A DNA stretch of 10,830 nucleotides from a virus: the UHGV virus genome UHGV-2152145; one strand, given 5' to 3'. Within the stretch, counting starts at the first letter, position 1. Each line of letters opens with the position of its first letter. The notes under the pieces were generated by a model. That model was given only the letters and a program-made list of their open reading frames with translations, was not told the origin of the DNA and did not search any database. Made by a program: the position numbers and the translations under genes. Shown in pieces: positions 1 through 10,830 of this stretch.

Positions 1-879
1 ATGAAAATACTGCCCGTTGTCTCCACCAAAGGTGGTGAAGGTAAATCAACACAATCCGCAAATCTTGCTGGTTTTCTGGCCGATGCAGGTATACGTACCC
101 TGCTGATTGACGGAGATCATGCTCAACCCACAGCCAGTAATATCTTTCCGCTGACATATGAAGCGCCAGCCGGCCTTTTTGAACTTCTTATGCGTACGGC
201 TGACCTCACTCATCCCGATAATATCATTTCCCGCACGGCTATCGATGGCCTTGATCTGATTGTCTCCAATGATCCTCATGAACAGTTAAAAACCGCGATG
301 CTTCACGCCCCGGACGGGCGTCTTCGCCTCCGGAATGTTCTGCAACATCCACTTTTCCTGAATAACTACGATGTCATTGTCGTTGATTCTCAGGGGGCGC
401 GCTCCGTCATGCTGGAGATGATAGTACTGTCGGCGACTGAGTCGGTTGTCGGGATGGTCAATCCGGTTCTTCCCGATGTTCGTGAATTTATTCGCGGTAC
501 TGTCAACGTCATGGAGAACCTGCTGCCCTACCGTGAACTTGGGATACCCCTGCCTAAAGTACGCACGCTGGTTAACTGCATGGACTATACCGCGCTGGCC
601 AGGAAGACGCTGGATGAGCTGGCCGGAATTATTCAGACCGGTCGTTACAGCAGACAGTTACCTGAAGGTGCCGTTTCCCTTCTTTCCACACAGATTTACG
701 ACCTGAATATTTACAAGCAGGGACATGCGGCTGGTCAACCCGTTCATCGTCTCGAAAAAGAATCCACACGTCGCAGTGATTCTGCGCTTGTCACGATGCA
801 CAGCCTGGCCTGTGAACTCTTTCCTGAGTGGAAACCGGCGTTTGACGGGCTGCTGGAAAACGGAGGAATTCGTCAGTGA
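1..879 (+). CDS. parA: ParA/Soj-family partition ATPase (deviant Walker A), complete 292 aa
   Basis: N-terminus MKILPVVSTKGGEGKSTQSANLAGFLADAGIRTLLIDGDH carries the KGGxxK[ST] deviant Walker A typical of ParA/MinD ATPases, with a hydrophobic DS (VVDSQG) Walker B-like segment further on. The ORF starts at window position 1 and stops with TGA at 877-879. Confidence 0.9.
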   Translation: MKILPVVSTKGGEGKSTQSANLAGFLADAGIRTLLIDGDHAQPTASNIFPLTYEAPAGLFELLMRTADLTHPDNIISRTAIDGLDLIVSNDPHEQLKTAMLHAPDGRLRLRNVLQHPLFLNNYDVIVVDSQGARSVMLEMIVLSATESVVGMVNPVLPDVREFIRGTVNVMENLLPYRELGIPLPKVRTLVNCMDYTALARKTLDELAGIIQTGRYSRQLPEGAVSLLSTQIYDLNIYKQGHAAGQPVHRLEKESTRRSDSALVTMHSLACELFPEWKPAFDGLLENGGIRQ

Positions 880-1008
880 TTCAGGTTAAGCGAGAACCAG
901 TCAGCTCTGTTGCTGTGGCTTATGGAGGTTATCAATACCGGAAGTCGTTATTTCATCAGTGTCATTAATTTTATCCATTTAATCAATATGATGAGAAGGA
1001 TTAACCCC

Positions 1009-1503
1009 ATGAATAACAGCAGCAATACCACAAACCGTAATACGTCTTCACCCGTTGAGTCAGCCTGTCATGCGTTACTGGATTTTATTGCCCGGGAAGT
1101 CTTTGAGAATAAAGCATCGGAAGAGGATGTCAGGGAGCGTTGCAAAGTATTTACAGCGCTGCTTAACGAAGGATTTAAAGCCCTGCTTGATGAGTCAGGG
1201 CTGAATCTGTCGAATCTTCGTAAACAGTGTAAGGAACTGGAATCTCAGATAACCAGACTGGATTCTCAGTCCGACGCTATTTGTCGCAGAAGCGCTCAAA
1301 TTGAACGCTTCATTGGCCACCATTTACCTTTTTTTGATTTGAACAAAGTTTCTGGTACTGCCAGTCAGTCATGTGAACCAGCGCCTTCTCCGGCTCAGTC
1401 GGCTGTGTCCAGTAGTCAGCCCAGTAATCTGTCAGAGCAAGGGACATCTCTGCGGGGGTCATCTGCTCAACCGTTGCCGGGAGCCAGTGATGCTGATGAA
1501 TAA
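1009..1503 (+). CDS. Hypothetical protein, predicted coiled-coil core with Ser/Pro/Gln-rich low-complexity C-terminal tail
   Basis: ATG at 1009 is preceded by GAAGGA (995-1000) at 8-nt spacing; the ORF-track start at 910 has no RBS. The central region (LRKQCKELESQITRLDSQ) looks helical/coiled-coil. The last ~190 nt overlap the minus-strand ORF 1310..1783, so the 3' portion is uncertain. Confidence 0.5.
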   Translation: MNNSSNTTNRNTSSPVESACHALLDFIAREVFENKASEEDVRERCKVFTALLNEGFKALLDESGLNLSNLRKQCKELESQITRLDSQSDAICRRSAQIERFIGHHLPFFDLNKVSGTASQSCEPAPSPAQSAVSSSQPSNLSEQGTSLRGSSAQPLPGASDADE

Positions 1504-1783
1504 GAGCAAACTTAACGGCTTGTTGAATGCTGATACTGTTATCGTCCAGAAAAAACCAGCGACGGCTGTTAATCAGCCAGTGTCCGAGCCAGCAAAGTCG
1601 GTAAGCGAGCTTCTGGTCAGCCCCGGGAAAGATTTCAGTTCCCTGGTCAAAGAAGGTTTTACAACGTTCCACATCGTCGGTGCTCATGCCTCCGGCTTTC
1701 CAGTTTTCATAATATTTTGCCATGTTGCCATCCTCATCATGGTTGTTATCAATGCCGGACGGCAGTTGTTTTTCTGTATTCAT
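1310..1783 (-). CDS. Possible divergent minus-strand ORF (157 aa) initiating inside repeat copy 1; uncertain
   Basis: The minus-strand ATG (complement of 1781-1783) is preceded by AAGGAG at ~7-nt spacing. The first 11 codons (MNTEKQLPSGI) are identical to those of minus ORF 2669..3064 because they lie within the repeat. The product is Trp/Tyr-rich and protein-like, but it overlaps the 3' end of + CDS 1009..1503, and antisense ORFs of this size are common in this window. Confidence 0.3.
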   Translation of the reverse strand: MNTEKQLPSGIDNNHDEDGNMAKYYENWKAGGMSTDDVERCKTFFDQGTEIFPGADQKLAYRLCWLGHWLINSRRWFFLDDNSISIQQAVKFALIHQHHWLPATVEQMTPAEMSLALTDYWADYWTQPTEPEKALVHMTDWQYQKLCSNQKKVNGGQ

Positions 1784-2010: not shown

Positions 2011-2913
2011 ATGTCTTCCTCAGTGAAATATTCTCCGGTTCCGGCGGTGTTAACCCGCCCTGAATTGCTGGCTGAACTGAACCTGCTGATGACCCGGATT
2101 GCCAGTGGGTGTCGTGTGGGGGTTCCGGCGTCATGTCGTCCGGTCATTGCGGTGCACGGTGGTTATGTTTCATACAGTTCTCCACGCGCCGGACGTGTTT
2201 TTCAGGACGGTTCCCGCCCGGAGATAGTGATGGCCGTCAGTAACCGGGAACGGATGTGCGAATGGTTCAGTCAGGTCTGGCTTCCGCTGCATCTGGCTGC
2301 CCTTGAAGGCGATGAGAGTGCTTTTTTCAGTGCGGAGGTCAACATGGTGCGCCGCGAGCTGCAGCGCGTTCCGGGGAATTCAATGAACTGCATGTGCTGG
2401 GCAAGCCTTGCTGCACTGGCATTTGATGCTGAAGAGCGGGTGGAACGGCAGAAAGGCAATAATGAGAACATCGCAACATATGATGAGAGCATCGCAACAT
2501 ATGCATTCCGTGCTGCCTGTACTGTGAGTCTCTGTCTGAGCCGGAATGTTTCCGGAGGTATTCCGCGCTCATACCCTGAATGGAAAGCGATTTTATTTCC
2601 CCGTGATGGTGCTGACATTTTCCCCGACGGGTGGCTGGAAAATATGACCCGTCGGGCTGAACGTGTCTTTACGAGTGCGAAACGTCAGTGTGGAATGCTC
2701 TCAGCCAGTCAGGCAGCGCTTTTTTCTCAACAAACACGTCAGTGTGCCAGTGAGCAATGCTCCGGCCGTATTCAGGCCGGCAGTCATCATTCAGGGAGCC
2801 ACCCTGACGTTTCAGCTTATGAAGTACGCTGTGCACAAGAAATGTCGCTTTCACCGGTCCATTCGACCCGACAGTGTTCAGTTCAATCCACTGATTCTGC
2901 TGAAACGGAGTGA
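2011..2913 (+). CDS. Hypothetical protein (300 aa), no recognisable domain; flanked on both sides by the 206-bp repeat
   Basis: ATG 2011 is preceded by GGAGGTG (1999-2005) at 5-6 nt spacing, directly downstream of repeat copy 1. Contains an in-frame 21-bp tandem duplication (2464..2505) and a Cys/Ser/Gln-rich C-terminal ~80 aa that looks low-complexity. The 3' end overlaps minus ORF 2669..3064. Confidence 0.5.
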   Translation: MSSSVKYSPVPAVLTRPELLAELNLLMTRIASGCRVGVPASCRPVIAVHGGYVSYSSPRAGRVFQDGSRPEIVMAVSNRERMCEWFSQVWLPLHLAALEGDESAFFSAEVNMVRRELQRVPGNSMNCMCWASLAALAFDAEERVERQKGNNENIATYDESIATYAFRAACTVSLCLSRNVSGGIPRSYPEWKAILFPRDGADIFPDGWLENMTRRAERVFTSAKRQCGMLSASQAALFSQQTRQCASEQCSGRIQAGSHHSGSHPDVSAYEVRCAQEMSLSPVHSTRQCSVQSTDSAETE

Positions 2914-3064
2914 AAGGATGAGCCGATTCAATACAGTTCGGGGGGAAGGGGTTACAGAGCCCGTCTTTTTCCGTCATGACCTTTCCGTTACTCAGCAGCC
3001 AGAACTGCTGGGTGTATTTCACTTCAGATCCAATGCCGGACGGCAGTTGTTTTTCTGTATTCAT
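2669..3064 (-). CDS. Possible divergent minus-strand ORF (131 aa) initiating inside repeat copy 2; uncertain
   Basis: The minus-strand ATG at 3062-3064 is preceded by AAAGGA. It shares only the first 11 residues with ORF 1310..1783 and then diverges completely. It overlaps the 3' low-complexity tail of + CDS 2011..2913. Confidence 0.25.
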   Translation of the reverse strand: MNTEKQLPSGIGSEVKYTQQFWLLSNGKVMTEKDGLCNPFPPNCIESAHPFTPFQQNQWIELNTVGSNGPVKATFLVHSVLHKLKRQGGSLNDDCRPEYGRSIAHWHTDVFVEKKALPDWLRAFHTDVSHS

Positions 3065-3237
3065 AAAGTTTTTCCTTTAAATCAGATTGTTATGAATGAG
3101 CGAATGCTGTCCGTACCTTCAGACCGGGGGCGGCAAACTTACCGGTCTGAAAACGTACAGGCAGTTATGGGCATTTTATGCCCTGCAACTGTTCGTCCGG
3201 CACCCTTTTTCCTTTTTTCACATAGCCGGGTTTCCGG
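3032..3237. repeat. Copy 2 of the ~206-bp direct repeat, immediately upstream of dnaB
   Basis: Same element as 1751..1956. Contains GGGCATTTTATGCCC (3169..3183) and the perfect 9-bp inverted repeat TCAGACCGG-N14-CCGGTCTGA (3119..3150). The dnaB RBS GGGAGG and ATG 3261 follow about 20 bp after the repeat ends. Confidence 0.9.
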
Positions 3238-3260
3238 CAGTCAGAGAGGGAGGATACACC

Positions 3261-4649
3261 ATGGCTGAACGCTATATTCCGCGCTCCGTTGATGCTGAAC
3301 AGGCTGTGCTTGGCGGCCTGATGCTTGATAATGATCGCTGGGATGAAGTGGTGCTGATGCTCAGGAGGGAGGATTTTTCTCTGGCTGTGCACAGGGTGAT
3401 ATTCCGCTCTATGTCAGAGCTGGCAGTCAGCGGTCAGCCGTTCGACCTCATCACGCTGAGTGAGCATATTGAGAAAACGCACAATATTGAGGCACTCGGC
3501 GGCTTCGCTTACCTGGCTGAGCTCAGTAAGAATACACCTTCAGCAGCCAATATCATGGCTTATGTCCGTATTGTGGCGGAAAAGAGTATGCTGCGGCAGC
3601 TTCAGGAAACCGGTAATTCTCTGGTTGCTGATGTTGCATCGCCGGATGCCACTCCGCGCGCAGTTCTTGAATCCGCGGAACGGCGACTTTTTTCTCTTTC
3701 CCAGACAGGCATGCTGCATGAGCGCAGTGAAGTGAGCCTTTCCTCCGCAATGGAGCTGGCCCTGCGTCAGCTGGAAGAAGGACTGAGGGCGGGCGGGATG
3801 ACGGGCACCCCAACGGGGTTTGATGAACTGGATGAGATGACCTGTGGCCTGCAGCCCGGGGATCTTATCCTTCTGGCAGCACGTCCGTCGATGGGGAAAA
3901 CGGCCCTTGGGCTCACTCTGTGTCTTAATGCCCTGCGTGAGCGGACCGATGAAACGGTATTCCTGTTCAGCATAGAAATGTCCAGGGAGCAACTGATTCT
4001 GCGTACCCTGTCGATGCTGTCCCGGGTGGAGCTGACTCGTCTTCGCAGCAGCATGATGGACGATGAGGAGTGGGCGAGACTTACGGCAACAATGGGTGAG
4101 TTCATGCAGGAGGGGACATCTGTCGGTGAAGGTAACCGCCTGATCATTGATGACTCGTCATTTCAGACTCCGTCATCACTGCGCGCCAGTGCCCGTCGTT
4201 ATGTGCGTCTGTATGGCAGACCTTCCCTGATAATGGTCGATTATCTCCAGTTGATTCGTTCACCGGACCAGGAAAACCGCACTCAGGAGATTGCGGAAAT
4301 ATCCCGCGCCCTCAAGTCGCTGGGGAAAGAACTTGGATGCCCTGTGCTCGCACTGTCGCAGCTTAACCGACAGGTGGAACAGCGGGCAGATAAACGACCA
4401 AACAACGGTGACCTGCGTGATTCCGGGGCGCTGGAGCAGGATGCTGACCTCATTATGTTTATTTACCGTGACGAGGTTTACAACCCCGGCACTCTGGATA
4501 AGGGCGTGGCGGAAATCATTGTGAGCAAACAGCGACAGGGACCGACCGGTACGATACGGGTGAGCTTCGATGGTCGTTACACCCTGTTTTCACCGTTTGA
4601 ACGTGGCTGGAATTTTGACCGTTCCGGAGGCAATGCGTATGTCAATTAA
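3261..4649 (+). CDS. dnaB: DnaB-family replicative DNA helicase (463 aa)
   Basis: N-terminus MAERYIPRSVDAEQAVLGGLMLDN is a typical DnaB N-terminal domain start. Walker A ARPSMGKTALGL, Walker B-like LIMVDYLQL, and SQLNR plus DLRDSGALEQDADLIMFIYRDEVY match the RecA-like DnaB C-terminal domain. The start is set at ATG 3261 with GGGAGG at 3248-3253; the ORF-track start at 3096 lies inside the repeat and lacks an RBS. Confidence 0.9.
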   Translation: MAERYIPRSVDAEQAVLGGLMLDNDRWDEVVLMLRREDFSLAVHRVIFRSMSELAVSGQPFDLITLSEHIEKTHNIEALGGFAYLAELSKNTPSAANIMAYVRIVAEKSMLRQLQETGNSLVADVASPDATPRAVLESAERRLFSLSQTGMLHERSEVSLSSAMELALRQLEEGLRAGGMTGTPTGFDELDEMTCGLQPGDLILLAARPSMGKTALGLTLCLNALRERTDETVFLFSIEMSREQLILRTLSMLSRVELTRLRSSMMDDEEWARLTATMGEFMQEGTSVGEGNRLIIDDSSFQTPSSLRASARRYVRLYGRPSLIMVDYLQLIRSPDQENRTQEIAEISRALKSLGKELGCPVLALSQLNRQVEQRADKRPNNGDLRDSGALEQDADLIMFIYRDEVYNPGTLDKGVAEIIVSKQRQGPTGTIRVSFDGRYTLFSPFERGWNFDRSGGNAYVN

Positions 4650-6264
4650 GCGAAATCATTCCCTTGACCTGGGGGCCGCCATCATGCAACCGGGGCGCCA
4701 GGCCAGTAAGACCGGTAACGTGGTTGCCCTGGGGGAAACGCCCATGGTTCTGACGCTGGATCAGTTGCGCCCTAATCCTGATAACCCGAGAACCACGCGC
4801 AATCCCCGGTACGACGATATTAAAAGTTCAATTTTCTCCCGCGGACTGGATACGGTGCCAAAGGTCACCCGGATACCGGAGAGTGAGCCGGATATCTACA
4901 TCTTCAGCGATGGTGGTAACACTCGTTATCAGATCCTGAGAGAACTGTGGGAGGAGACCGGCGAGCAGCGTTTCTACCGTATTCATGTGCTTTTCAAACC
5001 GTGGCCGGGGCGGCTTCAGTGTGTCATTGGTCATCTGGCTGAGAATGAAGTCAGGGGCGAACTGACGTTTATTGAAAAGGCTCAGGGTATCCATAAAGCA
5101 CGGATGATTTATGAAGAGTCCCTGCAGCGGACTGTGACGATCAGAGAACTGGCATCATTACTGACAGATGAAGGCCTTCCGGTAAGCCACTCATCCGTCA
5201 GCAGGATGGAGCATGCGCTGAAATATCTGTATCCGTGGATCCCCGAACTACTGGAGTCAGGAATGGGGAGACCGCAGGTCAATTCTTTGTTATCTCTCCG
5301 TCAGGATGCGGAACGCATCTGGGGGCAGTTTGCAGTCGCGGCGGAAAACGATGTGGATTTTGATCGCGTGTTTGGTGAATGTTGCGGCAAATTCAACTCG
5401 CCGGAACTCTGGTCCATGGAAATGTTCAGGGACGAGCTGATCGGTGACCTGCTGAAGGCTCTGCCACATCCGGTACTGGATTACGATCGCTGGTTGCTGG
5501 AGCTGGATCCCCGGGAGCGTAATCGACGTCACCATTTTGGTGAACCCGAACCGGTACTCATGCCGGCGGGCAGCCCCCCGGAACCGGGGGCTCAGGTGGC
5601 GTCTGGCGGGATGACGGAAGCTGCTCAGGTCGTTGCCGCCACTCCCGCAGACCGTGAGAGCGTCATGAATACTGCGCAATCAGGGGCTGAGAAAGAGGAC
5701 CGCCCGGTCGCAGATAAACGCGAACGACGCAGAAAGGAAGTTCAACCGGATATGTATGGTGGCGAAGACTCATACAGCGGTGATTGCGGAGAGGATGCGA
5801 CCGGTGAGTCAACTGATATACCGATAATGCCGGAAGATAACGCCATGCAGGAGGGGGGAGAATTTCGCCTGGCGTCTGCATTCACTGGTGCTGAACAGGA
5901 TGATATCGAATCTCTGCAGAATGAGGCGTTTCACCTCGCATGGGAGCTGGCGTCACATACAGGCTGTGTCGATGAGATAGCGATGGACCGGGAAAGTGAG
6001 CTGTCTGCAGGATTTGGTGCGGCAGAGGCAAATTGCTCACCGGTCATGGCATTTCTTGTCAGACTGACCGGTGAGGAGGTTCTGCGGGTCAATCCGGTTT
6101 CCCTTGATGCACTGCTGATAGGCGGCAGTACTGAAGAAGACCTGCCGTTGCTTGATGATGAACATGCAGGAAAGTTGCTTCGCCTGCTGGGTGTGTTGCG
6201 TCGTCTGCGGGGGCTGCAGCGTATGGTGGAAGACGAGAGTGAGGAAGGGCGCGATGAATGCTGA
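4639..6264 (+). CDS. parB: ParB-like nuclease-domain protein with long acidic low-complexity C-terminal extension
   Basis: LDQLRPNPDNPR and GNTRYQ match the ParB/Srx N-terminal domain signature (xPNPxNPR box, GxxR). ATG 4639 has GGAGG at 4626-4630 with 8-nt spacing and overlaps the dnaB stop by 11 nt, consistent with translational coupling. The C-terminal ~230 aa are rich in E/D/P/G/A. Confidence 0.8.
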   Translation: MSIKRNHSLDLGAAIMQPGRQASKTGNVVALGETPMVLTLDQLRPNPDNPRTTRNPRYDDIKSSIFSRGLDTVPKVTRIPESEPDIYIFSDGGNTRYQILRELWEETGEQRFYRIHVLFKPWPGRLQCVIGHLAENEVRGELTFIEKAQGIHKARMIYEESLQRTVTIRELASLLTDEGLPVSHSSVSRMEHALKYLYPWIPELLESGMGRPQVNSLLSLRQDAERIWGQFAVAAENDVDFDRVFGECCGKFNSPELWSMEMFRDELIGDLLKALPHPVLDYDRWLLELDPRERNRRHHFGEPEPVLMPAGSPPEPGAQVASGGMTEAAQVVAATPADRESVMNTAQSGAEKEDRPVADKRERRRKEVQPDMYGGEDSYSGDCGEDATGESTDIPIMPEDNAMQEGGEFRLASAFTGAEQDDIESLQNEAFHLAWELASHTGCVDEIAMDRESELSAGFGAAEANCSPVMAFLVRLTGEEVLRVNPVSLDALLIGGSTEEDLPLLDDEHAGKLLRLLGVLRRLRGLQRMVEDESEEGRDEC

Positions 6265-6985
6265 TGCCGCACGTCAGGATCAACTGATTAAACGGATAAG
6301 AAAACTGCTGGCGCTGAGCCGGAATAACAGTAACCCCCATGAGGCAGGCCAGGCACTTTCCCGTGCTCAGGCGCTGATGCGCAAGCACGGTATCACTGAA
6401 CTGGATACTGATATTTCGGTGATAAAGACCTCGTCATCAAAGGGGGCCCCGTCAGAAGCGGAAAAAGTTCCGGTATGGATGGGGCGCCTTATGCATGTTG
6501 TTGCAGAGGCATTCGGATGCCATACATACCTGGACTGGCGTATCACAACCGGAAGGTACTGGCGGCGGGTTGTCATATTTTATGGCTTTGGGGAGCGCCC
6601 GGTTGTGGCGGCGTATGCCTTTGATGTTCTCTGCCGGCAGATGCAAAAGGCAACAAAGGCGTATCTTTCAACCCAGAGCAGGGCATTAAAATTGTCAACC
6701 CGCAGGGCAAGAGCAGCCATGTTTCGTGACGGCTGGGTTTATGGGGTGCGTGATGTGGTGGATGCATTCCCGCTCACGGAAGATGAGACGCGTGTAATGA
6801 AGACGTGGCTGAAGAGACAGCAATTTGAGGGAATGGCTGCCTTCCGGAATGTTAAGGACTGTAATGGTGGTGATCGTGCACGCTGGCAGGGATACAGCGA
6901 GGGTAAAAAGGCAACACTGCATCATGGTGTTGGTTCCCGGAATCTGAGACCTGAAAGCCTGATATCGGGCGGAGGTGAGGTATGA
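6254..6985 (+). CDS. DUF2786-like protein (conserved hypothetical of plasmids/phages/islands)
   Basis: N-terminus MNADAARQDQLIKRIRKLLALSRNNSNPHEAGQALSRAQALMRKHGITELD fits my recollection of the DUF2786 N-terminal helical motif (IxKIrKLLALaxsxNxxEAxxAL). Start 6254 follows GAGGAAGGG and overlaps the parB stop by 11 nt. Confidence 0.65.
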   Translation: MNADAARQDQLIKRIRKLLALSRNNSNPHEAGQALSRAQALMRKHGITELDTDISVIKTSSSKGAPSEAEKVPVWMGRLMHVVAEAFGCHTYLDWRITTGRYWRRVVIFYGFGERPVVAAYAFDVLCRQMQKATKAYLSTQSRALKLSTRRARAAMFRDGWVYGVRDVVDAFPLTEDETRVMKTWLKRQQFEGMAAFRNVKDCNGGDRARWQGYSEGKKATLHHGVGSRNLRPESLISGGGEV

Positions 6986-7560
6986 GTAACAACTTGTCAC
7001 AGGCCACCAACGGGCTGTTGATGCAACTGGTGATGGATCTCAAGAGTGGCTATCTGCGGCGATGTGAAGCACTGGGGCTTTCCCGGGAAGAAATGCAGAT
7101 GCTGCAGGGGCTGAGCATTGAAGAAATTCACTATCTGTCAAATTCAGAAGTGTCGGTGCTGCGGCTGGATATTAACCACAACAATCTTGTGCGCATGTTG
7201 CAGCAGGCGCGGACTGAACAGAAACGTCTGCAGCGAATCGATCGCGCTCTGGCGCTGGGGGGCTCTATCGAACTCATGGCGTTTTATTTTGGTCTTTCCA
7301 GCGTGGATGTGGCTGCGCGGCGTCGTATCTCCGGTATTGATGTTCGTCCCGGAAGGGGGATCACCCTGAGTGACGATGAGAATTCTGAACTCTGGCGGTT
7401 GTGGCAGAAAGCCGGGATCAATGATGTGGAGAGTGTGGACGGGCTGGATGTCATGATGCTTTGTGCTGAACAGATGAACATTCCACTGACGGCCATCTGG
7501 CATGCCGTCAGAGGGTGGCATACAACCGGAAATCCGGATCAGGTAAGGAGCGCGTCATGA
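6982..7560 (+). CDS. Hypothetical protein (192 aa), part of the coupled operon
   Basis: ATG 6982 overlaps the upstream stop (ATGA) and is preceded by GGAGGTGAGG. Composition is protein-like with no motif I can name with confidence. Confidence 0.6.
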   Translation: MSNNLSQATNGLLMQLVMDLKSGYLRRCEALGLSREEMQMLQGLSIEEIHYLSNSEVSVLRLDINHNNLVRMLQQARTEQKRLQRIDRALALGGSIELMAFYFGLSSVDVAARRRISGIDVRPGRGITLSDDENSELWRLWQKAGINDVESVDGLDVMMLCAEQMNIPLTAIWHAVRGWHTTGNPDQVRSAS

Positions 7561-7805
7561 AGATGACAGAACTGGTTCCCGGAGTGCTGACAAGTCCGGG
7601 CGTCCCTCCCGCCAGTCAGCGTAAGGCGGTTGAACTGGTCAATCGCTTCCGTCGTGGAGAGCGGAATTATCATGAACTGAAGGAAAGGGGATTTGGTTAT
7701 TTCAAGATTGATGTTGGTCCTGACTGGCGGTTACTGAGCCGGAATAAAGGGCTGACCTGGGCCCTGTTGAGTCATGAACGATACAACAACATGAGACTGA
7801 AGTGA
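7557..7805 (+). CDS. Small hypothetical protein (82 aa); weak resemblance to HigB/RelE-superfamily toxin C-terminal core
   Basis: ATG 7557 overlaps the upstream stop (ATGA) and follows AAGGAG (7545-7550). The C-terminal half GFGYFKIDVGPDWRLLSRNKGLTWALLSHERYNN resembles the HigB-like pattern (Gxxxxxi.V...WRl....followed by an aromatic/His near the C-terminus). This is a by-eye pattern match only. Confidence 0.5.
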   Translation: MKMTELVPGVLTSPGVPPASQRKAVELVNRFRRGERNYHELKERGFGYFKIDVGPDWRLLSRNKGLTWALLSHERYNNMRLK

Positions 7806-7814
7806 GGTGGAAAG

Positions 7815-8072
7815 ATGAGTAATGCAGCAAGACTCCAGCTGGGTTTTTCTCCGTTTTCAAAAACTATCGTGCTGGCAAAAATGCGTAATCTTGACGACGG
7901 AACCAGTCTTCGTGTCGGTAATGATCCCGGCCGCGATGTAACCAATGAGGCGGCTCAGCTTGTCTGGCATCTGGTCATGGCAGAAGGTGGTGAAATTATG
8001 TGGGAAATGGACGATGGCTCCCGCATGGTGCTGAAGGCTGAAAGTCAGGAGGCAACCAGTGAGCAAGATTAA
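7815..8072 (+). CDS. Small acidic hypothetical protein (85 aa)
   Basis: ATG 7815 is preceded by GAGGTGG (7803-7809). No HTH or other recognisable motif. The 3' end overlaps the next gene start by 14 nt. Confidence 0.5.
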   Translation: MSNAARLQLGFSPFSKTIVLAKMRNLDDGTSLRVGNDPGRDVTNEAAQLVWHLVMAEGGEIMWEMDDGSRMVLKAESQEATSEQD

Positions 8073-8727
8073 CTACCAGGCACTGCGTGAGGCGGCAGAG
8101 CAGGCAATGCATGACGACTGGGGATTTGACACGGATCTTTTCCATGAGCTGGTAACACCATCGATTGTGCAGGCACTGCTGGATGAACGGGAAGCCAAAA
8201 GCAAACTCCTGGCCGAACTGGACGCTAATTTATCCGAACTGGAGGCTGTTTTATCGGCGATGGGCGAAGAGCTCCAGAAAGCGACTGAGTCAATTGAGCG
8301 GGCTGATGCGGCTGCTACGTTGGCACACGAGACGTTTTCGGCGCTGGCGGCGGAGAATGCGATACTGAAGACAGCACTTCCTCAACCATTCGGACCTGAA
8401 ATGATGAAGGCTCTTGATGCGTATGAGAAGCACCAGGATGAAGTACCAGAGGCAGGAATGCTCAATGCATTTTTCATCTTACGCGACAGCATCTGTGTTG
8501 AAACCCCAGCCACCGATGCTTTCCTGGCTGAAGTACGGGCGCAGGGGGGGGATGCTGCTATAGAAGCTGCAAAAAATCTGGTGGCTCAGGAATATGAGTA
8601 TAAGGATTTCAAAGCGGCGCAGAGTGATTGCTGTATGTTTCCTGGTTCAGACTTGGTAGGGAAGGTTGAAATGACCGAGTGGTTAGTTGACTTTGCCGCA
8701 GAGCTTCGCAAAGGAGGCAACCAGTGA
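8059..8727 (+). CDS. Hypothetical coiled-coil protein (222 aa); shares its RBS and first ~12 codons with the next gene
   Basis: GTG 8059 is preceded by AGGAGG (8047-8052). The N-terminus MSKINYQALREAAEQA is near-identical to the start of 8724..9458; from memory this resembles ead/Ea22-like prophage proteins. The central region is helical/coiled-coil in character. Confidence 0.6.
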   Translation: MSKINYQALREAAEQAMHDDWGFDTDLFHELVTPSIVQALLDEREAKSKLLAELDANLSELEAVLSAMGEELQKATESIERADAAATLAHETFSALAAENAILKTALPQPFGPEMMKALDAYEKHQDEVPEAGMLNAFFILRDSICVETPATDAFLAEVRAQGGDAAIEAAKNLVAQEYEYKDFKAAQSDCCMFPGSDLVGKVEMTEWLVDFAAELRKGGNQ

Positions 8728-9458
8728 ACAAGATTGACTATCAGGCACTGCGTAAGGCAGCACAAAACTATCAGTCGACGCTGGCGTGGTATCAGTCCAT
8801 CCCGGACAGCCCAAATGCTGAACGGGATTGTGATGCGGCTCTGGCTGCGTTTAAGCATCACATCCGTCATCGGGAAGTGGATATTATCTCCGGGCTGTTG
8901 GATGAGCTGGACGAAAAACAGCAATACATTAAATCCCGCGACCAGGAGAATGAGGATATTGCTCTTACGGTTGGGAAGCTGAGAGTTGAGCTTGAGGAAG
9001 TAAAACAACACGCTGAAGAATTATCCGAAACCAACGCTGTTCGTAACCAATGGCGGCCAGATATTTGCCCAATAACCGGACGTGCATTTTTCATGTGGAT
9101 TGAGCATCCGACATTGGGAAATGTGCCGACGTATGGTGGCCCATTAGACAGTTACACCATTCCAACAAAGGACGGTGACGGTGAGTTTTCATGTGAGCGT
9201 TACGATCATGATTTCGGCGGTTGGGTAGAAAGCGAATGTCCTGGGTTATATCTGATTGATGATAAAGAACAATGCAGAGTCTACGAACTGGAGGAACGAG
9301 TTAAGGAACTGGATGCTCGGGAAATATCGCTCCCGGAACGTAGCAGTATGCTTCATCGAACAGATTTTAACGAGGCTTACCACACGGTAATGGCATACAA
9401 AGTTTCTGAAGTCATCGCTGCAATCCGCGTCGCTGGCATTCGCATCAAAGGAGAGTGA
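8724..9458 (+). CDS. Hypothetical protein (244 aa), mosaic: head shared with 8059..8727, tail shared with 10391..10606
   Basis: GTG 8724 is preceded by AAGGAGG (8711-8717). N-terminus MNKIDYQALRKAA; C-terminus ...AAIRVAGIRIKGE matches the C-terminus ...CTAAGIRIKGEQVK of 10391..10606. Overlaps the upstream stop by 4 nt. Confidence 0.6.
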   Translation: MNKIDYQALRKAAQNYQSTLAWYQSIPDSPNAERDCDAALAAFKHHIRHREVDIISGLLDELDEKQQYIKSRDQENEDIALTVGKLRVELEEVKQHAEELSETNAVRNQWRPDICPITGRAFFMWIEHPTLGNVPTYGGPLDSYTIPTKDGDGEFSCERYDHDFGGWVESECPGLYLIDDKEQCRVYELEERVKELDAREISLPERSSMLHRTDFNEAYHTVMAYKVSEVIAAIRVAGIRIKGE

Positions 9459-9459
9459 T

Positions 9460-9975
9460 ATGGCGTTAACACACCGCGAACTCTGTCAGATTGCGTACAA
9501 GTTCCTTAAGCGCAACGGGTTCAAGGTTTGCTTTCATGACCGCTTTATAGCTGTAACCAGCACTGGAGAACAGCCAGATGCTATGGGATTCAGAAATTCA
9601 GCATCATGCCTGATAGAGGTGAAGTGTTCTCGTTCTGATTTGTTGGCAGATAGAAAAAAGCGTTTCCGTAAAAATCCCTCTCTTGGCATGGGCGACTGGC
9701 GATTCTTTATTAGTGAGCCGGGAATTATTTCAGTTGAGGATTTACCTCCTGGCTGGGGATTACTTCACGTTGTTAACGGAAGAGTTCGGAAAGTACATGG
9801 ATGGCCCAGGGGTAATTGCTGTTGGGGTAATCCTGACGATAAGCCATTTACCGGGAATAAGCAGGTTGAATGCGATTACATGTTATCTGCATTAAGGCGG
9901 ATGGAGTTGAGAGGGCACCTTAATGAAATATATGACGGTGTAATTGTTAATAAGAAAGAAGGAAACGCGGCATGA
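9460..9975 (+). CDS. Candidate PD-(D/E)xK-fold nuclease (171 aa); visibly more AT-rich than its neighbours
   Basis: Motif arrangement GEQPDAMGF...(about 10 aa)...CLIEVKCS fits the PD-(D/E)xK core (PD, then hydrophobic strand ending E-x-K), with an upstream acidic residue in HRELCQ. ATG 9460 follows AAGGAG. By eye the composition is AT-richer than the flanking core genes. Confidence 0.55.
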   Translation: MALTHRELCQIAYKFLKRNGFKVCFHDRFIAVTSTGEQPDAMGFRNSASCLIEVKCSRSDLLADRKKRFRKNPSLGMGDWRFFISEPGIISVEDLPPGWGLLHVVNGRVRKVHGWPRGNCCWGNPDDKPFTGNKQVECDYMLSALRRMELRGHLNEIYDGVIVNKKEGNAA

Positions 9976-10394
9976 TCACTATTACCAAAGGACGACTGCT
10001 GACAATCAGGCAGTGGCGCGAAACATACGGACCGGGTAGCAACGTTGTACTGCCAGCAGAAGAAGCGGAAGAACTGGCGCGGATTGCCCTGGCGTCGCTG
10101 GAAGCCGAGCCGGTTGGTGAGTTTTATGAATACAAACCGGGTGACTGGTATCAGCGTTCGGTCGGGGATAAAGCGCCAAAGTGGACACCACTCTACGCTG
10201 TGCCACCAGTGCTTGTGGCACCTGAAGGACTGGTTAAGGCTGTGCGCTTTTATGAACAGGTTAAGCGTGAAAATCCGCCAGTCGAAACCGGAGCATGGAA
10301 AGACGCTGTTGACTGGGTATTACAGGAAGCATGTCAGGCTGTTCATTGGTGCCGACAGATATCAGACCTTCAGGAACAGGAGAATCATTCATGA
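9972..10394 (+). CDS. Hypothetical protein (140 aa)
   Basis: ATG 9972 overlaps the upstream stop (ATGA) and is preceded by GAAGGAAA. No recognisable motif. Confidence 0.55.
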   Translation: MITITKGRLLTIRQWRETYGPGSNVVLPAEEAEELARIALASLEAEPVGEFYEYKPGDWYQRSVGDKAPKWTPLYAVPPVLVAPEGLVKAVRFYEQVKRENPPVETGAWKDAVDWVLQEACQAVHWCRQISDLQEQENHS

Positions 10395-10606
10395 GAAAAA
10401 TCAGTGGAATGTTGAATCTGGAGAAGGCCAGGATGCAGTTGCGTGTTTTGTTATCTGGACCTGTTCCTGCAATCACTCCGATGGCGCATGCCGTGGCAAT
10501 AAAAGTTGTGCTTGATGCTCTGGATGCTAGTGAGCGGAGGGTGGCTGAACTGGAACAGGTCTGTACTGCCGCGGGGATTCGTATCAAAGGGGAACAAGTG
10601 AAATGA
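10391..10606 (+). CDS. Small hypothetical protein (71 aa) with C-terminal AGIRIKGE tail shared with 8724..9458
   Basis: ATG 10391 overlaps the upstream stop (ATGA) and follows AGGAG. The ORF-track start at 10331 lies inside the upstream gene with no RBS. The C-terminal ~15 aa and their nucleotides resemble the 3' end of 8724..9458. Confidence 0.5.
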   Translation: MRKISGMLNLEKARMQLRVLLSGPVPAITPMAHAVAIKVVLDALDASERRVAELEQVCTAAGIRIKGEQVK

Positions 10607-10830
10607 AACTGAAAATGCAGACAATTTCGGGTCCTGTGATTATCGACAGTAATGAGGTGACACAGTTTTACCCGGACCATGAAAGTGGAGGGGAACTCAC
10701 CGCTGTTGAATACTTTACTGACGAGGGAAGATGCACCACCCGGGTACGCCATTCCTTTTATCAGGTTGCTGAGGCACTTGCCAGTGCATGGCATGTGGAT
10801 GATGCATCAAAAAGGAATCGCCGTGGATAA
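10603..10830 (+). CDS. Small hypothetical protein (75 aa)
   Basis: ATG 10603 overlaps the upstream stop (ATGA) and is preceded by AAGGGGAA. Stop TAA falls at the window end (10828-10830). Confidence 0.5.
   Translation: MKLKMQTISGPVIIDSNEVTQFYPDHESGGELTAVEYFTDEGRCTTRVRHSFYQVAEALASAWHVDDASKRNRRG

Follow-up and report, generated by a model that had tools for sequence, protein, structure and literature searches.

A 10,830-nucleotide (nt) stretch of the virus genome UHGV-2152145, called the window below when the whole stretch is meant, carries a small gene whose product belongs to the ParE-like family (Pfam PF24732) and is predicted to adopt the fold of the RelE/ParE toxin superfamily. The window constitutes the core at the left end of an integrative conjugative element (ICE) of the SPI-7/ICEclc/pKLC102 family. 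The first-pass annotation had proposed that the ParE-like gene and the next gene, a member of the DUF7446 family, might form an atypical toxin-antitoxin pair, or that the former might instead be a conserved small core protein of the element. Our comparison across genomes and phages showed that the ParE-like gene has no cognate antitoxin, in that no partner is conserved across its loci, and that DUF7446 is not its partner. We favor, with a probability of roughly 0.45, the explanation that the ParE-like product works alone, as a protein with a toxin fold that affects the host cell once it is activated.

Both open reading frames (ORFs) exist as they were first described, with products of 82 amino acids (7557..7805, + strand) and 85 amino acids (7815..8072, + strand). 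The 82-residue ParE-like protein is basic, with an isoelectric point (pI) of 10.47 and a net charge of +7.7. It contains ...GFGYFKIDVGPDWRLLSRNKGLTWALLSHERYNN, the motif that had been likened to the C-terminal core of HigB/RelE-type toxins; the motif is present, but it is not terminal and is followed by the four residues MRLK. A Shine-Dalgarno sequence, AAGGAG (7546-7551), is located 5 nt 5' of the start, and the ATG shares 4 nt with the stop codon of the preceding DUF2857 gene (ATGA, 7557-7560).

The ParE-like protein matched Pfam PF24732 (ParE_like) over residues 21-78 with an E value of 7.3e-18 and 64.8 bits (cutoff 24.4), and no other toxin family in Pfam was matched at E ≤ 1. The toxin resemblance of this ORF is well beyond chance. 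RefSeq holds a 100% identical protein, WP_001682043.1, under the name "ParE family toxin-like protein", and the names given there to the identical or nearly identical E. coli chromosomal copies are "ParE family toxin-like protein" and "DUF7446 family protein". In PHROGs, the ParE-like and DUF7446 proteins fall into families 1525 and 1578, respectively, both of unknown function. Neither of the two products was matched in NCBIfam, and PADLOC returned no defense-system match. A literature search found no paper on PF24732 or "ParE family toxin-like" proteins, on DUF7446, or on STY4526/STY4528. Pfam and RefSeq already record the family, which is defined by sequence only, and its toxin-like character; what is new here is comparative, namely that a solo RelE-fold gene is fixed beside a BisC-like gene in enterobacterial islands and recurs as an early gene of phages.

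A profile search recovered 283 clusters of ParE-like proteins at 90% identity, mostly from enterobacteria, and an exhaustive single-sequence search gave 35 representatives at 50% identity. Five residues (R58, L60, S61, H73, and Y76) were invariant across 68 diverse members, and six others (A24, W57, L59, G65, W68, and E74) were nearly invariant, E74 being retained in at least 90% of them. The ORF is a real gene under purifying selection, and the pairwise ratios of nonsynonymous to synonymous substitution rates (dN/dS) among the island copies were 0.06–0.33 where dS could be estimated. The same 82-residue protein, in a nearly identical operon, was also found in genomes labeled Kluyvera, Chimaeribacter, Dryocola, Pseudescherichia, Superficieibacter, Pantoea, Enterobacter, and Erwinia. 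The identity of the protein across these genera indicates a very recent cross-genus spread of one island.

The structure of the ParE-like protein was predicted using an alignment-based AlphaFold model (predicted local distance difference test score (pLDDT) 89.7, predicted template modeling score 0.76), which replaced an earlier single-sequence model (pLDDT 69). The model consists of a short N-terminal hairpin, a helix at residues 18-32, four strands, and a helix at residues 73-81. It agrees with the compact alpha/beta fold of solved toxins, in which one or more N-terminal helices pack on an antiparallel sheet of three or four strands, and it can be superposed on them. The best Foldseek matches were YafQ, YoeB, an H. 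pylori toxin (4lsy/4ls4), HigB, and RelE, with probabilities up to 0.99 and TM-scores of 0.46–0.57. No ParE was present among the top 47 matches, except for one entry titled "YoeB/ParE toxin". The profile match and the modeled fold bear out the toxin resemblance that had been noticed from the sequence, and this ranking makes the description "HigB/RelE-like" at least as suitable as the database label "ParE-like".

Searches of the PDB with the protein (phmmer) and with the 68-sequence profile (hmmsearch) gave chance matches only (E ≥ 0.7). Alignment of the ParE-like profile by hhalign with E. coli RelE, E. coli YoeB, and P. vulgaris HigB gave probabilities of 5% or less, the best being 23 columns with HigB. 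The Pfam family and the fold comparison are therefore the basis for assigning the protein to the toxins. We also aligned the protein with reference toxin sequences using MAFFT; the residue correspondences are suggestive only: R58 presumably corresponds to R61 of RelE, R65 of YoeB, and R73 of HigB, and Y76 presumably to Y87 of RelE and Y91 of HigB. The remaining catalytic positions of the RelE type are not conserved in the ParE-like family. The protein is a member of the RelE/ParE toxin-fold superfamily, and its predicted structure and conserved residues place it nearer to the ribosome-dependent mRNA interferases (YafQ, YoeB, RelE, and HigB) than to the gyrase poison ParE. The Pfam and RefSeq names would suggest a true ParE-type DNA gyrase poison that stalls host replication when the element is activated; we consider this very unlikely.

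The pairing of the ParE-like and DUF7446 genes was investigated in several sets of loci. The genome set comprised 36 loci found by a pattern scan built on a 12-sequence alignment, with one genome per species. The viral-contig set comprised 80 ParE-like and 80 DUF7446 loci, and co-occurrence was scored within ±5 kb. DUF7446 was present in none of the 36 genome loci that carry the ParE-like gene. In the viral contigs, both families occurred together in 1 of 80 ParE-like loci and 1 of 80 DUF7446 loci, and these are the same contig, from the same island as the window. This contig, IMGVR_UViG_2778261447_000014 of IMG/VR (9.4 kb), carries DUF2857, ParE-like, and DUF7446 genes at 99–100% identity to the window; it is a fragment of the same conjugative island and was probably filed as viral owing to its phage-derived cargo genes. 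Among GenBank phages, the ParE-like family was found in 65 records, DUF7446 in 21, and both in 2, in which the genes are approximately 9 kb apart. Twelve prophage places of DUF7446, in the early-left operons of three lineages, had no PF24732 neighbor. Among 5426 complete E. coli genomes, 92 had the island-type ParE-like gene and 232 had DUF7446 anywhere, and the two were adjacent in 26, with both genes intact in all 26. Other E. coli island variants had a 58-residue or a 91-residue gene together with Ead/Ea22 fragments 3' of the ParE-like gene.

Pooling 116 loci, 115 upstream and 107 downstream neighbors of the ParE-like gene could be scored. The upstream neighbors fell into 8 unrelated clusters, the largest being a 3'-5' exonuclease (64), DUF2857 (31), a 66-residue protein (11), and a 123-residue protein (5). 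The downstream neighbors fell into 13 unrelated clusters, the largest being a Dam-like methylase (58), STY4528 (26), a 338-residue protein (5), and a 128-residue protein (4); DUF7446 was the neighbor in 1 of the 107. Ten representative neighbors from the other contexts had no antitoxin domain, and neither they nor DUF7446 and DUF2857 combined a DNA-binding domain of the antitoxin type (Xre-type helix-turn-helix (HTH), ribbon-helix-helix, Phd/YefM, or AbrB) with a toxin-binding tail. A search of the window for an RNA antitoxin using Rfam at E ≤ 0.1 gave no match. The ParE-like gene sits inside an operon: a consensus scan, the only search made for such signals, found no promoter-like and no + strand terminator-like site in 6800-8400. 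The ParE-like and DUF7446 genes do not form an autonomous bicistronic unit either, as the former is joined to DUF2857 by the ATGA overlap, the DUF7446 gene shares the 14 nt of its 3' end with the first Ead/Ea22-like gene, and the scan found no promoter-like site of their own.

These observations bear directly on the reading of the locus as a HigBA-like type II pair in which DUF7446 is an atypical antitoxin lacking an HTH. The arrangement in the window is suggestive of such a pair: a basic toxin-fold protein is followed after a 9-nt spacer by a small protein that has its own ribosome-binding site (GAGGTGG), the order is toxin first as in higBA, and both genes are intact in the 26 E. coli genomes. 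The first description of the 85-residue protein was also accurate, in that it is acidic (pI 4.58, net charge -6.4) and has no HTH or other DNA-binding domain, PF24233 being its sole Pfam match; no match was obtained for it in the PDB. However, DUF7446 does not stay adjacent to the ParE-like gene across homologous loci, as an antitoxin gene would. The two families are unlinked in the genome loci, the viral contigs, and the phage records alike, the prophage copies of DUF7446 lack a PF24732 neighbor, other E. coli variants have different small genes in the same place, and in 26 of 107 loci STY4528 comes next after approximately 100 nt. Furthermore, phages, lambdoid and other, encode proteins that are 58–82% identical to DUF7446, and its gene is linked with an Ead/Ea22 module. 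DUF7446 has no DNA-binding domain and, by the consensus scan, no promoter of its own. The proposed pair is therefore abandoned here as highly improbable, and the DUF7446 gene is regarded as phage-derived cargo.

The one neighbor to which the ParE-like gene is tied within islands is DUF2857. The ParE-like gene is located directly 3' of DUF2857 in 28–29 of the 36 genome loci, mostly with the 4-nt ATGA overlap. The genera represented number more than 15, all enterobacterial, and the identity of DUF2857 goes as low as 46%; the gene order is ParA-DnaB-ParB-(DUF2786)-DUF2857. The usual next gene, approximately 100 nt on, encodes a 412- to 438-residue STY4528 protein (NF040582, E 4e-126). The DUF2857/ParE-like pair is also present on enterobacterial plasmid-borne copies, and in the 92 E. 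coli genomes with the island-type gene, the ParE-like gene adjoins DUF2857 in every one of those listed. STY4528 comes directly after DUF2857, with no ParE-like gene between them, in ICEHin1056, pKLC102, and an ICEclc-type Pseudomonas plasmid. The suggestion that the protein is a conserved small core protein of the element thus holds for the Enterobacterales branch of the SPI-7/ICEclc/pKLC102 family and not for the family as a whole.

In ICEclc, the ParB-like protein is BisD and the DUF2857 protein is BisC, and BisDC is the master activator that locks 3–5% of the cells in transfer competence (PMC7423338). The ICEclc transcript from PalpA runs from alpA to orf96323, includes bisDC, and is fired in only 3–5% of cells (PMC7423338). 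Residues 31-93 of the DUF2857 protein in the window gave a weak FlhD match (Pfam E 0.0012; NCBIfam E 0.0053); the ICEclc study likened BisC to FlhC and saw no FlhD domain in BisD (PMC7423338).

The conserved neighborhood raises the possibility of an antitoxin-first or regulatory pair, in which the BisC-like DUF2857 protein would bind the ParE-like protein and either neutralize it or be modulated by it, the ParE-like protein being a third subunit, co-activator, or anti-activator of a BisDC-type regulator. DUF2857 is the sole conserved neighbor within islands, the conserved ATGA overlap implies coupled, nearly stoichiometric synthesis, and the regulator-then-toxin order is that of relBE and parDE. 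In canonical systems, moreover, the toxins of the RelE/ParE superfamily co-regulate with their antitoxins, and this too speaks for such a pair. BisC is in addition part of a transcription activator (PMC7423338). On the other side, DUF2857 occurs without the ParE-like gene in ICEHin1056, pKLC102, and the ICEclc-type plasmid, BisDC works in ICEclc without any ParE-like protein (PMC7423338), and 77 of the 80 viral ParE-like loci have no DUF2857. The domain occupies residues 10-181 of the 192-residue protein and leaves a tail of approximately 11 residues, which is far shorter than the usual toxin-wrapping tail. DUF2857 as an antitoxin is ranked lower because each gene widely occurs without the other, and we regard a partnership of this kind as unlikely.

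Outside the islands, shorter relatives of 72–75 residues are solo early-operon genes in P2-like and lambdoid prophages. In the P2-like prophages, the gene is located between the exonuclease gene and a Dam-like methylase or primase gene, just 5' of the replication gene; in another prophage setting, it is beside a ParB-like gene. Another candidate explanation is that the RelE/ParE fold has been domesticated and is not toxic, and that in islands and in phage early operons near replication genes it has a structural role, binds nucleic acids, or assists replication. The ParE-like gene is always surrounded by genes for replication, partition, or DNA modification; in the islands these are DnaB, ParB, and STY4528, and in the prophages they are exonuclease, Dam methylase, primase, or gpA-type replication genes. 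It also persists without any antitoxin, and the canonical catalytic set is only partly matched. However, the polar triad R58, H73, and Y76 is invariant and E74 nearly so, at what the suggestive MAFFT alignment indicates are the catalytic positions of RelE, YoeB, and HigB, whereas inactivated toxin folds usually lose such residues. The protein is also strongly basic, like ribosome-binding toxins. The nearest precedent, the protein Shi of ICEclc, counts in favor of domestication, as it is not toxic alone (PMC6812849). Taking both sides together, we find a purely domesticated role doubtful.

We return to the explanation that a solo protein with a toxin fold acts on the host cell when this is activated. 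The fold, the purifying selection, the invariant polar triad, the conserved coupling to the BisC-like gene, the lack of a conserved partner, and the place within a long operon are shown; the mechanism is inferred. The ParE-like protein would be made only when the ParA-DnaB-ParB-DUF2857 operon of the island switches on, and its phage relatives would be made at the onset of early lytic transcription. Once made, the protein would affect the host, most likely through RelE-type inhibition of translation or growth in the activated, transfer-competent cell. Otherwise, the transcriptional silence of the operon, in place of an antitoxin, would keep the protein harmless. DUF7446 is the first gene of a lambdoid-phage Ead/Ea22 block that landed in the variable spot separating the ParE-like gene from STY4528.

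A more specific version, which we offer as a tentative possibility, is that a RelE-fold protein was recruited in Enterobacterales as an effector or regulatory subunit of a bistable BisDC-type switch. Made in a fixed ratio with the BisC-like protein, it may either halt translation and growth of the few transfer-competent donors or tune the switch by binding BisC/BisD, and its phage relatives may be antitoxin-less early host-takeover factors. The first of these options would make it a second case, independent of Shi, of a toxin fold put to this use by an ICE.

The features of the window are summarized in Table 1.

Table 1. Positions of the features annotated in the window.
Feature	Position	Strand	Basis or remark
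ParA gene	1-879	+	Co-oriented cluster
SPI-7-type DnaB gene	3096-4649	+	681.8 bits, cutoff 655
ICE-type ParB gene, BisD-like	4570-6264	+	NCBIfam TIGR03764 ICE_PFGI_1_parB, E 3.8e-113, 377.5 bits, cutoff 143.75
DUF2786/DUF7168 gene	6152-6985	+	Pfam
DUF2857 gene, BisC-like	6982-7560	+	Pfam PF11198, E 8.7e-66
Translational-coupling junction (AAGGAG + ATGA)	7546-7560	+	Read from the sequence; same 4-nt overlap in most ICE loci
DUF7446 gene, first of the phage-derived cargo block	7815-8072	+	Pfam PF24233, E 1.7e-15; phrog_1578, E 2e-31
Mosaic junction: 51-nt module (ribosome-binding site + Ead/Ea22 5' end)	8047-8097, repeated at 8712-8762	+	Repeat 90% identical
Two tandem Ead/Ea22-like genes	8059-8727 and 8724-9458	+	Pfam PF13935, E 1.9e-11 and 1.3e-17
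171-residue protein	9460-9975		phrog_9263, E 8e-122; phrog_631
140-residue protein	9972-10394		phrog_660, E 1e-42

The Ead/Ea22 region showed 83–93% DNA identity to Shiga toxin (Stx)-converting lambdoid phages, and this homology begins at 8047, within the 3' end of the DUF7446 gene. The 51-nt repeat looks like a recombination joint for shuffling genes of the "ea" region. With the phage-like DUF7446, the start of the Stx-phage homology, and the 51-nt module, the sequence from 7815 onward is therefore assigned to phage-derived cargo, and 7815-10830 looks phage-derived as a whole. The ParE-like gene and STY4528 flank a cargo hotspot, the contents of which vary among the E. coli island variants.

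The ICE core is recognized by ParA, TIGR03764 ParB, DUF2857, and STY4528 genes in the same orientation with conjugation genes 3' of them. All of these were found, with STY4528 and the conjugation part read from a related E. coli locus: in this 96.7%-identical locus, the cluster is followed by STY4528, PFL_4669, topoisomerase III, SSB, PilL, TraD, and TIGR037xx ICE proteins.

Further features were observed in the left part of the window. A 222-nt direct repeat with 90% identity is present at 1750-1971 and 3031-3252, and its copies are located just 5' of two + strand genes, one for a 300-residue hypothetical protein (from 2011) and the other for DnaB, the true start of which is likely near 3258. 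Each copy extends over the 5' end of an ORF on the minus strand whose product starts with MNTEKQLPSGI (1310-1783 and 2669-3064). A promoter or a region bound by a regulator of the island may have been duplicated here. ParA and the gene for the 300-residue protein are separated by approximately 1.1 kb (880-2010), compared with approximately 340 nt in E. coli NCTC9112 (14772-15108), whose island is 96.7% identical, and the window therefore has approximately 0.8 kb of extra sequence. The ORFs 910-1503 (+) and 1310-1783 (-) in this extra sequence matched no Pfam family.

As a result of this analysis, the proposed atypical toxin-antitoxin pair dissolves into a toxin-like domain already annotated in databases and a piece of phage cargo. 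What remains is of modest use: a family of RelE-fold proteins without antitoxins that is present in widespread enterobacterial islands as well as in early operons of P2-like and lambdoid prophages. Should the protein prove active, this ICE family would offer a second case, after Shi/HicA, of a toxin fold domesticated to govern transfer-competent cell physiology. It would also be a warning that a toxin-like domain beside any small gene is not enough for an annotation pipeline to call a toxin-antitoxin pair.

Compared with known systems, the window protein is a full member of PF24732 and of the RefSeq "ParE family toxin-like protein" group, with no family-level difference. It differs from YafQ, YoeB, RelE, and HigB in having no significant sequence homology to them, in its lack of a cognate antitoxin or autonomous operon, and, according to the model, in having a single helix, not two, ahead of the sheet. 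It shares with HigBA, RelBE, and ParDE a toxin fold and, superficially, a small neighboring gene of opposite charge. Those systems have a conserved DNA-binding antitoxin and form a bicistronic unit under an autoregulated promoter of their own, whereas none of these was found at the ParE-like locus.

The closest parallel is Shi, which has a diverged HicA fold, is encoded between parA and parB of ICEclc without a HicB, and binds ParA, arresting the division of transfer-competent cells together with it (PMC6812849). Like Shi, the ParE-like protein has a toxin-superfamily fold, lacks a cognate antitoxin, and is encoded inside the ParA-ParB(BisD)-BisC operon of the same ICE family. Unlike Shi, its fold is RelE/ParE and not HicA, and its gene is located after bisC and not between parA and parB. 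The lineage differs as well: the operon of the Enterobacterales islands includes DnaB, and no gene resembling HicA was noticed in these islands. With a RelE/ParE rather than a HicA fold, the ParE-like protein is therefore at most an analogue of Shi and not a member of its family. In a Pseudomonas veronii plasmid of the ICEclc type (NZ_CP039632.3), the gene at the shi position between parA and parB (1087-1323) is annotated as a HicA family toxin, and just after STY4528 the same plasmid carries another toxin gene, of the conventional RelE/ParE kind, preceded by a small gene. Toxin folds seem to have been recruited repeatedly around this operon. The function of Shi was demonstrated in ICEclc, and by parallel with it, the ParE-like protein may have a comparable role in the enterobacterial islands.

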